Shown here one piece after another: positions 24,225 through 27,185 of a stretch of 64,000 nucleotides of DNA (its first letter is position 1; the number at the start of each line of letters is the position of its first letter). The position numbers and the translations under genes were made by a program. The notes under the pieces are model-generated. The model was not told where the DNA came from. It did not search any database and saw only the letters and a program-made list of their open reading frames with translations. The stretch is from a phage. The stretch lies in sequence record PZ386957.1. One strand, written 5' to 3'.

Positions 24225-24258
24225 TGTTAAATCCTCATAAAATAAAAGGGAGACTCTC

Positions 24259-24286
24259 ATTATAGAGAATCTCCCTTGTATGTCAA
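24259..24286 (-). promoter_or_regulatory. early sigma70-type promoter with inverted repeat around -10
   Basis: TTGACA-16-TATAAT with GGGAGATTCTC / GAGAGTCTCCC flanking the -10. Confidence 0.6.
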
Positions 24287-24289
24287 GTG

Positions 24290-24815
24290 TTATGATTGCA
24301 TCCAATCACGGCGTAAACTTGGATCATCGCCGTAGAGCATATCGAATAGCTCTTTGTAATTTTCTGGTAAAGTGATAATTTCCGTAACTGGTTCGTTAAT
24401 CACCTTGTGATAGTCTGATTCAGTCAAAGATGCCAACCCTTTGATGTATCGAATGTTATAACCTTTGATGTTATCACGGTCGGCTTCAAAGTCGTCAAGG
24501 CTATAGTACCAGCGTACATCATCACCTTTCTTTGGTTCCGCAATGATAATAGGTGTTTTCACAAACTTAATTCTACCTTCCTCGAACATTTCAGGCCAGC
24601 GAGCAAAGAAAGAAATAAGAGACGGTTTAATAGACCCTAAGCCAATAATCTCGATGTAAAGTTAGTTAGCCCGAAGGCTAACCATCGGTATCTGCGTCAG
24701 TCATTATCGCGATGTTTTTATACATTGTCGTTGGAGTCCGACGACGGCGTACATTCGTTTGCGCTTTGTATGCTACCATGTTCACATTCTGTGTGTCGAT
24801 TTTCTTTAATTTCAT
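24290..24815 (-). CDS. 60: gene 60 topoisomerase II subunit (GyrB C-terminal-like) with programmed translational bypass (coding gap)
   Basis: Segment 1 (24815..24681) encodes MKLKKIDTQNVNMVAYKAQTNVRRRRTPTTMYKNIAIMTDADTDG then TAG; after a 37-nt gap the frame resumes at GGC 24643 as LGSIKPSL...RYIKGLASL...DWMQS (track ORF 24290..24589). Both halves align with remembered T4 gp60 either side of its hop. Confidence 0.8.
24644..24680 (-). other. translational bypass (hop) coding gap with take-off hairpin
   Basis: Take-off GGT (24683..24681) followed by UAG and hairpin AGCC-UUCG-GGCU, as at the T4 gene 60 take-off site; landing GGC at 24643..24641. Confidence 0.75.
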
Positions 24816-25650
24816 CGATATACCTCACTAATTCTTCGTCATTATATGGATTATAACCATCTTTAAATCTGTCAAACATCTTAACGACCGATTTTCTAGG
24901 ACAGCTAAGGTTTAACGCTTTATGACATTTAGCCGCGCCAGTAGCTTTAAATCGATTAGGATCGTAGTTTGACACAAACCAATCATAAATGTCAATCGTG
25001 TGGATAATCGCTTCTTTTGGTGTTAATGGTTGTTTATACCATTTCATGCTACGCATTACAGCAGCACCAGCAAGAGACGCTTTTCTAATTAATTCTTTGT
25101 TGTGTTTGTTTATTCCGTAGAACTCACCTGATAGAACAAGCGGATCATCGACCGCTAATTGTCTACGTTCGCCTTTATCGTTGATATAGATTGTTCTGCC
25201 TTTTGCTTTCTTATTATCAAAGTGTCGGCCTTTATTCAGTCCTACATAAAGATCCTTGTTTTGTTTGTATTCCTCTTTAGAAATTATAACACATTTACCA
25301 TCACTGACGCGTTTAACAGACAAACGACCTACCATCATTTCTTTAGAGAAGTTGGAAACTACTGTTCTATGTTGTTCTCTCGCGAATTGGTACATTGCAC
25401 CTGTCTTATATTTTCCGCTATTTGTCATGCGGTTTAAGGCGTAGTGCATTTTTCTGTTGTTATAAATCTTGGTTAACAGTATATGAGCAAGAAAGTGCTC
25501 TCTATATGTAAACGAAACAAGATTGGAATCGTCATCACTCCCACCCATAGATTTGGGTAGGATGTGATGAACTTCGATACCTTTATCACGAACGAGACCT
25601 CGTAACCGGCCTTTTTCTACTAGTTGGTTATAGATCTTTTGATAATTCAT
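24718..25650 (-). CDS. HNH homing endonuclease (MobA-like) inserted between gene 39 and gene 60
   Basis: 310 aa; EVHHILPKSMGGSDDDSNLVSFTYREHFLAHIL is an HNH motif; 4-nt overlap with gene 39 stop; 3' end overlaps gene 60 segment 1 in another frame. Confidence 0.8.
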   Translation of the reverse strand: MNYQKIYNQLVEKGRLRGLVRDKGIEVHHILPKSMGGSDDDSNLVSFTYREHFLAHILLTKIYNNRKMHYALNRMTNSGKYKTGAMYQFAREQHRTVVSNFSKEMMVGRLSVKRVSDGKCVIISKEEYKQNKDLYVGLNKGRHFDNKKAKGRTIYINDKGERRQLAVDDPLVLSGEFYGINKHNKELIRKASLAGAAVMRSMKWYKQPLTPKEAIIHTIDIYDWFVSNYDPNRFKATGAAKCHKALNLSCPRKSVVKMFDRFKDGYNPYNDEELVRYIDEIKENRHTECEHGSIQSANECTPSSDSNDNV

Positions 25651-27185
25651 AACATTCTCTTAACCTCCACCCATTCACCGTTAATCAATACTTCATCGTT
25701 AATATTAACAATAATTTTCTCACCTTGCAAGTCTAGCTCGAAAAACTCACCATCTACCATTTCTTCGGAGGTGGGAACACCAAACTGTAAACCAGTGATC
25801 GCCATAATGTTAAAAATTTCGGCATTTTTAACAATTGCAGTTTCTGGTTGTCCCCACGTTGTAAGAGTTTTACCTCGCAACGGGAAACCGCCATGTAAAT
25901 CTTGATCACGTACAGAGATCAGATAGTTGATCGCGGAATCACCTTCCGTCAAAAACAGGGTAGTTTCTGCGTCAGTTCCAATAAGGTTAGCTTTAACGTG
26001 TTTTGCTACCTTAGCCCGTTTTGCTGCCTTTGCTGCCTTAGTCGCTGCCGCTTTATCTGCTGCCTCTTTGCGTGCCAATACGACCGCGATAATAGGCATG
26101 ATAATATTTTCTTTCTTCGCAATGACTTTAGCCAGCTTTTTAAAATCCAGATCAATGTGACGCTTGATATCACCAGTAGGGTTAGTCAAACGTTCTTTCG
26201 TCTGGGAATCAAAACGCAAGTTAGGCAATTCACGAACAATCAAAATACAGGTCAAACCAGACTTAACCGCAGCTTTAGTAACATCAACTTTATATTCTTT
26301 CTTGATTCGTTTTACAATTTCCTCACATAGATCATCTGTTACATAGTCTACGTGTGTTCCCCCGTTTTTGGTAAACAGACCATTAGCAAAGGATACTGAT
26401 TTAAAACCTTCACCTTCAACCGCAGGAACTAGAGCAAGTGAAAAGTTTTTATCCTCGATGACAAACGGATCATCATTGTAGAGTTTAGCATACTCTTTGA
26501 ACTTGCTGGTGATTCTCTTTCCGTTAAACTTAAACGTGATTTTAGGAAAGATAACACTCAAAGAATACAGACGGTCACAAATCACATCTGCAATCTCTTG
26601 TGACATAATCATCCCTTCAAAATGATCAAAATCAGGACAAAATGTAACCTTTGTTCCCTTTAATTTTGATGGCTTAGATGACCATGTAATATTTTCCGCA
26701 CCGTTGGTACATTGTACGGTTAATTCATTCTCGCCATCGCACGTTACACCCGTAAACCATGCGGAGAAGTATGCAGTTAACGCGCTGCCGATCCCATTCA
26801 TTCCCATAGTAACGCGGTTGGTATCATCAAAGTTAGATCCGGCTTTAGCTCGTGTCCATGCAGCGACTGGTTGCGGGATCTGTTTTCCTTCCGGTGTCGT
26901 TACGATATGTTGAGGAATACCGCGACCATTATCCGTTACCGATACAATGTTATCTTGAATATCTACGCTGATTACATTAGCAAAATCAAAATTTGTTCGG
27001 ATTGCTTCGTCTACAGAGTTGTCGATGATCTCATCGATGATTTTAACTAGCCCAGGAACATATGATACAGTTGTCCATTTACCATACAGGAATCTATTAT
27101 GTGATTCGTATGTAGTAGACCCGATATACATCGATGGTCTCTTAAGGCAGTGAGCACGATCATCTAAGAGTAAAAATTCACTCAT
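25647..27185 (-). CDS. 39: DNA topoisomerase II large subunit gp39 (GyrB-like ATPase/Toprim)
   Basis: 512 aa; IIDNSVDEA, DNGRGIP, GKQIPQ, GLTCILIV and Toprim region typical of GyrB-type ATPase, as in T4 gp39. Confidence 0.92.
   Translation of the reverse strand: MSEFLLLDDRAHCLKRPSMYIGSTTYESHNRFLYGKWTTVSYVPGLVKIIDEIIDNSVDEAIRTNFDFANVISVDIQDNIVSVTDNGRGIPQHIVTTPEGKQIPQPVAAWTRAKAGSNFDDTNRVTMGMNGIGSALTAYFSAWFTGVTCDGENELTVQCTNGAENITWSSKPSKLKGTKVTFCPDFDHFEGMIMSQEIADVICDRLYSLSVIFPKITFKFNGKRITSKFKEYAKLYNDDPFVIEDKNFSLALVPAVEGEGFKSVSFANGLFTKNGGTHVDYVTDDLCEEIVKRIKKEYKVDVTKAAVKSGLTCILIVRELPNLRFDSQTKERLTNPTGDIKRHIDLDFKKLAKVIAKKENIIMPIIAVVLARKEAADKAAATKAAKAAKRAKVAKHVKANLIGTDAETTLFLTEGDSAINYLISVRDQDLHGGFPLRGKTLTTWGQPETAIVKNAEIFNIMAITGLQFGVPTSEEMVDGEFFELDLQGEKIIVNINDEVLINGEWVEVKRML

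Follow-up and report, generated by a model that had tools for sequence, protein, structure and literature searches.

A putative gene 60-type translational bypass cassette at the 3' end of a MobA element in a Krischvirus topoisomerase gene

The split topoisomerase gene and its inserted element

The window, that is, the whole stretch of 64,000 nucleotides analysed here, represents an RB49/Phi1-like Escherichia coli phage (Krischvirus), with approximately 94% nucleotide identity over 25 kb. On its minus strand, the Krischvirus 60+39 topoisomerase gene is divided into a gp39-like reading frame (ORF1) and a gene 60, and a gene for a MobA-family HNH homing endonuclease lies between them (Table 1). 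In blastn comparisons with Shigella phage JK32 and Escherichia phage Phi1, homology breaks off at 25776 and restarts at 24637, and 66 nt of the parental gene are replaced by the 1138-nt element, the break falling after amino acid 470. The parts of the element follow one another in the order C-terminal extension, MobA, N-terminal extension, and putative bypass cassette with the resume codon.

Table 1. Coordinates of gene 60, of the putative bypass signals and of the inserted element (window positions)
Feature	Position	Strand	Remarks
ORF1 (gp39-like), 512 aa	25647..27185	-	N-terminal 470 aa of topoisomerase II large subunit + 42-aa extension
C-terminal extension of ORF1, 42 aa	25775..25650	-	Element-encoded, in frame
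Whole MobA mobile element, 1138 nt	24638..25775	-	Limits from blastn with JK32 and Phi1
MobA-family HNH homing endonuclease, 310 aa	24718..25650	-	Apparently intact; alignment with six MobAs
Shine-Dalgarno GAGG of gene 60	24823..24826	-	7 nt 5' of ATG; read from sequence
Gene 60 segment 1 (N-terminal extension, 45 codons)	24681..24815	-	ATG 24815..24813; end ...AIMTDADTDG
Putative take-off codon GGT	24683..24681	-	Last codon of segment 1
Stop TAG	24680..24678	-	Directly after the take-off GGT
Take-off stem-loop UGGUUAGCC-UUCG-GGCUAACUA	24663..24684	-	9 bp; spans take-off codon and UAG
Putative non-coding gap, 40 nt	24641..24680	-	UAG, remainder of stem-loop, AU-rich spacer, mini-Shine-Dalgarno, landing codon
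Mini-Shine-Dalgarno GAG	24650..24652	-	6 nt (AUUAUU) 5' of landing codon
Putative landing codon GGC	24643..24641	-	37 nt past take-off codon
Gene 60 segment 2	24290..24640	-	Resume codon TTA; 116 codons LGSIKPSL...WMQS; TAA 24292..24290

The MobA element has been defined by Manning and Atkins (2022; bioRxiv 10.1101/2022.08.31.505936) as an insertion of 1097–1106 nt that splits the topoisomerase II gene in the Toprim region near amino acids 466–473, with the deletion of 55–75 nt, and that carries a C-terminal extension of approximately 44 aa and an N-terminal extension of 44–46 aa. Take-off in such elements is at an invariant Gly codon, or at the Asp codon before it, with a stop or a rare codon next, and the mini-Shine-Dalgarno stands 5–7 nt 5' of the landing codon in AU-rich surroundings. 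The element in the window is slightly longer than those published, and all of its defining traits that can be read from a sequence are present: the insertion site, MobA, both extensions, the take-off codon with its stop, the hairpin, the codon pair, and the mini-Shine-Dalgarno. All of the Krischvirus records matched in INPHARED have one continuous 60+39 gene at the insertion site, and no carrier of the element was found among them; when the gene 60 / MobA region was compared with INPHARED at near identity, the only match was the unsplit Krischvirus gene 3' of the landing site.

ORF1 contains the Pfam domains HATPase_c and DNA_gyraseB and shares approximately 89% nucleotide identity with Krischvirus up to amino acid 470. 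Its element-encoded extension aligns with seven others (..EE..DGE.F.....G..IVN.NDEV.I.G.W..V) and is homologous to the extensions of T4, S16, KARL-1, Stupor, R13, and Thanatos. The MobA of the window can be aligned over its full length with six MobAs, with 34–43% identity and invariant HNH motif columns, and gives a weak Pfam HNH score (20.4 bits against a cut-off of 21.4). The C-terminus of this MobA runs approximately 24 aa beyond those of other MobAs, giving an overlap of 98 nt with gene 60 (published overlaps, 8–32 nt), and an extension of the same length is found in a related contig described below (L074). Judged from the sequences, the extension probably arose when gene 60 changed synonymously (ATT GAT to ATC GAC) and the usual MobA stop was thereby lost.

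A preliminary description of this DNA had placed here a gene 60 written in two frames, and both the frames and their positions are borne out (minus strand, 45 + 116 codons). The GAGGT motif before gene 60 is also present in T4, S16, and KARL-1. Segment 1 encodes MKLKKIDTQNVNMVAYKAQTNVRRRRTPTTMYKNIAIMTDADTDG (45 codons), composed of a putative nascent-peptide signal of approximately 31 aa followed by 14 aa (YKNIAIMTDADTDG) that substitute for deleted parental codons, and the frame of segment 2 (TTA GGG TCT..., that is, LGSIKPSL...) is +1 relative to that of segment 1. Joined, the two would give a product of 45 + 116 = 161 aa. Counted from the stop codon through the landing codon, the gap measures 40 nt in the window and 50 nt in T4 (misc_feature of the T4 record), and the GGU/GGC pair and the gap of about 40 nt, against a longer one in T4, can be read directly, as had been described.

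Several further features of the region were observed. Identity to Phi1 falls to 75–85% in segment 2 (24290..24637) against a background of 94–96%, and a second divergent patch, with 69–81% identity, occupies 26550..27150 in the gp39 N-terminal region. On sequence comparison, either co-conversion during homing or mosaicism would fit both patches. Insert-free Shigella phage JK32 (L010, 461-1189) carries another gene, annotated as 'endonuclease', directly upstream of its unsplit topoisomerase gene, and this gene has no counterpart there in the window. A perfect sigma-70 consensus (TTGACA-16 nt-TATAAT, 12/12) lies just 3' of the gene 60 stop at 24246-24286 on the minus strand and overlaps a 13-bp terminator-like hairpin that is followed by a T-run.

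Signals around the gap and the relation of the two segments

The hairpin following the UAG, given in the preliminary description as AGCC-UUCG-GGCU, is present, but its stem is longer than was indicated there, extending to 9 bp and taking in the take-off codon and the stop. RNAfold gives it a free energy of -12.9 kcal/mol. The sequence TAGCCTTCGGGCTA, which is the same in T4, occurs once in the window and in none of 100 shuffles. Covariation of the take-off helix was assessed over seven cassettes, those of the window, T4, HY01, Proteus Pm5461, S16, Thanatos, and KARL-1: 90.5% of the cells are paired, both partners change in six of the pairs, and the score was reached in 0/500 shuffles, while in a control in which the 3' partners were slid by 1–3 columns pairing dropped to 27–41%. 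The third base of the take-off codon itself covaries, being U-A in the window, S16, Thanatos, and KARL-1, A-U in T4, and G-C in Proteus. The stem of the window is the shortest UUCG-capped one among the seven (9 bp versus 10–15 bp), and the 71-nt region folds with z = -1.9 relative to shuffles; both values count against bypassing. An Rfam search of the cassette region returned no family.

Past the hairpin the stretch is 76% A+U, and the 11 nt GAGAUUAUUGG, comprising the mini-Shine-Dalgarno and the spacer, are the same in the window and T4, in which the role of GAG at gap nt 39-41 as a mini-Shine-Dalgarno has been described (PMC5009743). Within the gap, the only triplet cognate to a GCC anticodon is a GGC at nt 10-12, inside the hairpin. 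This GGC, followed by UAA, could serve as an unproductive landing site, and in that respect it likewise counts against bypassing; T4 has a GGG at the equivalent place (gap nt 9-11), in a part of the gap that is normally unscanned (PMC5009743), and the confinement of the only cognate triplet to the hairpin, as in T4, speaks for bypassing.

Comparison with the parental gene bears on whether the two segments form one protein. Read as one, the two segments run colinear with the unsplit topoisomerases of JK32 and Phi1. The alignment to JK32 has no gap; the junction reads YKNIAIMTDADTDG|LGSIKPSLISFFARWPE in the window and YKNIAIMTDADTDG-IGSIKPSLISFFARWPE in the unsplit JK32 protein. The 14 replacement codons before take-off differ from the Krischvirus parent by nine synonymous and no non-synonymous changes, leaving the encoded amino acids unaltered. 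After landing, 17 codons show six synonymous changes and one non-synonymous change (I to L), and the remainder of segment 2 shows 28–33 synonymous and 18–19 non-synonymous codon differences. These substitutions show purifying selection acting on either side of the gap. In the nascent peptide, residues Y16, Q19, V22, R24, Y32, M38, and T39 are conserved in T4 and in other clades as well and correspond to all seven of the T4 residues (Y16, Q19, V22, R24, Y33, M39, and T40) whose roles are described by Manning and Atkins (2022). The divergence of this region claimed at the outset is confirmed, the N-terminal extension being 56% identical to that of T4, with the seven key residues kept.

Two other routes between the frames were considered and ruled out. 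A +1 frameshift at GGU_UAG would enter a frame that reaches TAA after five codons, and take-off from GAU with landing on the GAU inside GAGAUU would lead into a frame that stops after six codons.

The strongest alternative, though an improbable one, is that the two segments are expressed separately, as a 45-aa peptide ended at the UAG and a C-terminal fragment initiated at the AUG at 24589 or at a non-canonical codon near the mini-Shine-Dalgarno. The database annotations of S16, KARL-1, AC4, and Stupor as two separate CDSs agree with such expression, as does the presence of AUU AUU in frame just before the GGC, beside GAG. The annotations, however, are automatic ORF calls and not experiments, and a GAG at 0–3 nt from the AUU codons is poorly spaced for initiation. 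The ATG at 24589 is the first in segment 2, and 17 codons precede it; their frame has a TAA seven codons ahead of the landing codon and no ATG, GTG, or TTG between the two, and therefore ordinary initiation cannot express these 17 codons. They match the parent protein except for the I to L change, despite their six synonymous changes, and belong to a conserved GSI.PSL..FF..WPE block. In addition, T4, with an identical GAGAUUAUUGG, makes a single bypassed product (PMC5009743).

Related copies in public assemblies

Sister copies of the cassette were reached via protein-database searches of public assemblies. One of them, L074 (Logan SRR7892483), carries MobA, shares 84% nucleotide identity with the window, and has a 40-nt GGU/GGC gap that is identical at 36/40 nt, the four differences all lying in the spacer that separates GAG from GGC. 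Another seven contigs, each from a different sample (L075-L081; JGI 3300005711, ENA ERZ28586303, and Logan DRR827126, SRR21291508, DRR827173, SRR6109211, and SRR22896080), have the gene order of the window, with MobA cleanly deleted and both extensions and a 41-nt GGU/GGC cassette kept. More distant are L083 (Logan SRR29026054, 2162-2400), a 152.8-kb contig with MobA that keeps the layout and has GGU/GGC with a 42-nt gap, and L082 (Logan SRR14301313, 102-330), with GAU/GAC, a 32-nt gap, and a 7-bp hairpin (GAUUAGC-UUCG-GCUAAUC). A much more divergent topoisomerase accompanies the GGG/GGA pair and 54-nt gap of L072 (JGI Ga0209174_10012078). No copy has a disrupted segment 2.

The coding flanks of the window, L074, and L075 share 73–84% identity with one another, those of L074 and L075-L081 being 75–84% identical to the window, and the first 31 gap nt match those of the window at 31/31 positions in L074 and 28/31 in L075; GGU, UAG, GAG, and GGC are invariant in the three. 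Conservation of the gap amid diverged coding flanks is, as far as sequence comparison can tell, the pattern expected of a functional signal.

Pattern scans recovered few relatives. In IMG/VR, the pattern ATGACNGAYGCNGAYN{3,9}TAGCCTTCGGGCTA gave one match, Proteus phage Pm5461, and the window-specific gap gave none, while MobA peptide patterns gave 60 loci that had the generic N-terminal HNH domain only, none with a bypass cassette. A metagenome scan for GAYGGTTAGCCTTCGGGCTAA returned no match, a weak negative given that the JGI contig L075 contains the exact pattern, and a second, broader scan returned T4 itself and the divergent GGG/GGA cassette of L072. Nothing was on record in an exact-protein look-up of the 45-aa segment 1 peptide.

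These copies also bear on the possibility that the cassette is a decaying relic, in which the loss of gp60 is tolerated (for example, through host gyrase) and the bypass signals have merely not yet eroded. The T4 topoisomerase is not strictly essential, so the viability of the phage alone is no proof that bypassing works. The short stem of the window hairpin would fit decay, as would the loss of MobA from many sister copies, which indicates that the element does decay. However, segment 2 has stayed open throughout, the take-off codon, stop, hairpin, mini-Shine-Dalgarno, and landing codon are invariant where segment 2 is only 75–80% identical in nucleotides, and the MobA-less form with an intact cassette was assembled from seven different samples. 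Decay is therefore judged slightly less probable again than separate expression. A sequencing or assembly error that made an uninterrupted ORF look as if it held a stop and a frameshift, named beforehand as a finding that would overturn the interpretation, is scarcely credible, as the interruption is a structured 40-nt insertion within a 1138-nt element rather than a single-base indel and the same cassette recurs in independent assemblies from at least nine samples.

Proposed decoding and comparison with known cassettes

Taken together, the locus is best read as a gene 60-type programmed translational bypass cassette at the 3' end of a MobA element in the Krischvirus 60+39 gene, with a probability of roughly 0.87. 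Bypassing, the interpretation originally offered, is supported by the clean boundaries of the insert and the replacement of the 66 deleted parental nt by element-encoded codons; by the colinearity, the mostly synonymous differences flanking the gap, and the 17 start-less codons after landing; by the homology of both extensions and MobA to those of T4, S16, KARL-1, Stupor, R13, and Thanatos; by the hairpin covariation and a mini-Shine-Dalgarno, 6-nt spacing, and AU-rich spacer matching T4; and by the diverged sister copies, which keep GGU, UAG, hairpin, GAG, and GGC. From homology with T4 and from conservation, we infer the occurrence and efficiency of the bypass and the identity of the tRNA.

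In the proposed sequence of events, the 45 codons of segment 1 would be translated and the nascent peptide (..Y16..Q19..V22-R-R24..) would engage the exit tunnel. Once GGU in the P site holds peptidyl-tRNA-Gly and the A site contains UAG, this tRNA would unpair, the UUCG-capped hairpin would form, and the ribosome would slide across 37 nt without decoding. The same tRNA-Gly would then re-pair at GGC, 6 nt downstream of the mini-Shine-Dalgarno GAG, and decoding would restart at UUA in the +1 frame to give one 161-aa subunit. One tRNA-Gly(GCC) decodes both GGU and GGC, and the host tRNA-Gly with anticodon GCC would be the expected one; no tRNA gene was found in the window, and a phage-encoded tRNA-Gly thus plays no part, as far as the 64 kb extend. 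At the DNA level, the 40-nt insert probably keeps the element's own MobA from cutting the gene in which the element resides, as demonstrated for T4.

Programmed bypassing of tens of nucleotides is among the most extreme departures from linear decoding, and to our knowledge T4 gene 60 was its sole example for 30 years. The survey of 2022 made the gene 60 bypass a family (Manning and Atkins, 2022), to which the window adds a further clade in the RB49-like genus. The element has homed into a phage genus whose matched database genomes all have the unsplit gene, and since this genus grows on laboratory E. coli, the 40-nt gap, the GGU/GGC pair, and the intact MobA are testable in the T4 host and assays. 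The understanding of the bypass mechanism is unchanged by the window.

In the non-identical codon pairs collected here (loci L002-L009, L072, and L074-L083), take-off is always wobble-paired and landing always Watson-Crick: GGU to GGC occurs in six groups, GAU to GAC in two, and GGG to GGA in two, with no reversed pair. This asymmetry could be a design rule, in which weak pairing eases take-off and strong pairing secures landing, or it could reflect the common ancestry of a few cassette types; because the cassettes are of common ancestry, it is only suggestive. For Asp, a queuosine-modified anticodon may weaken the argument from wobble to Watson-Crick pairing. No discussion of the asymmetry was found in the accessible portions of Manning and Atkins (2022). 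It can only tentatively be proposed, and is on balance rather doubtful, that the window represents an independent, uncatalogued Krischvirus clade of the MobA-bypass element in a phage growing on laboratory E. coli (the T4 gap minus approximately 10 nt, with tRNA Gly-GCC) that adds to this one-directional pattern.

Alignment with T4 gene 60 and its relatives, the comparison first suggested for this locus, found every part of the element in the window to be homologous to its counterpart in the T4 gene 60 / MobA element. The insertion site in the topoisomerase large subunit and the order of parts are as in T4, and the two have in common the UAG after a Gly codon, the TAGCCTTCGGGCTA hairpin core, the GAGAUUAUUGG stretch, and the UUA resume codon. 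The codon pair is GGU/GGC in the window and GGA/GGA in T4, implying tRNA-Gly(GCC) rather than the tRNA-Gly2(UCC) of T4. Approximately 10 nt of the AUACCUCAUAAUUAA stretch between the hairpin and the mini-Shine-Dalgarno are absent in the window, the frame shift is +1 instead of +2, and the N-terminal extension has 45 codons instead of 46. The MobAs are 40% identical, that of the window being intact and that of laboratory T4 a pseudogene.

Salmonella phage S16 (Gelderlandvirus) resembles the window in its GGU/GGC pair, the compensating U-A pair, UAG, and GAG 6 nt before landing, with an N-terminal extension 58% and a MobA 38% identical to those of the window, but differs in its 48-nt gap, in resuming in frame, and in its 15-bp stem. 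The Acinetobacter phages (Lazarusvirus) Stupor and Abraxas have GGU/GGC with 42 nt, and KARL-1, Aci03, and AC4 have GAU/GAC with 43 nt; these cassettes are like the window in their short gaps without the ACCUCA segment and in a similar 3' part (UUUCGAG + AU spacer). The KARL-1-type N-terminal extension is the closest to that of the window (64% identity), whereas take-off in KARL-1 occurs one codon earlier, at Asp, and Stupor has a GCAA-loop hairpin and a sense AGG codon instead of the stop. The closest MobA, at 43% identity and with insertions in common, is that of Aeromonas phage 50AhydR13PP and relatives, the R13-type cassettes of which differ from the window in a gap of 17–20 nt, a vestigial hairpin, and a GAC/GAC pair. 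Gap lengths re-derived from the GenBank records are 48 nt for S16, 42 for Stupor, 43 for KARL-1, 17 for R13, 52 for Thanatos, and 51 for Proteus. Compared by description, the 'byp' elements of the mitochondria of the yeast Magnusiomyces capitatus are also translational bypasses whose codon pairs tolerate wobble, but they are unrelated in sequence, numerous, short, spread over many genes, and without Shine-Dalgarno or MobA.

The novelty implied for the non-identical codons and the shorter gap does not hold. [quoted passage not shown] No Krischvirus or lineage sequence or accession was found in the accessible text and supplements, in which line wrapping could hide a match, and no later paper extending the catalogue was found in the literature. 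Set against these sources, what is new is the host clade, Krischvirus, as the GGU/GGC pair and the short gap had already been described in 2022, and from the sequences compared the Krischvirus lineage is arguably a new clade of the known MobA-bypass element.
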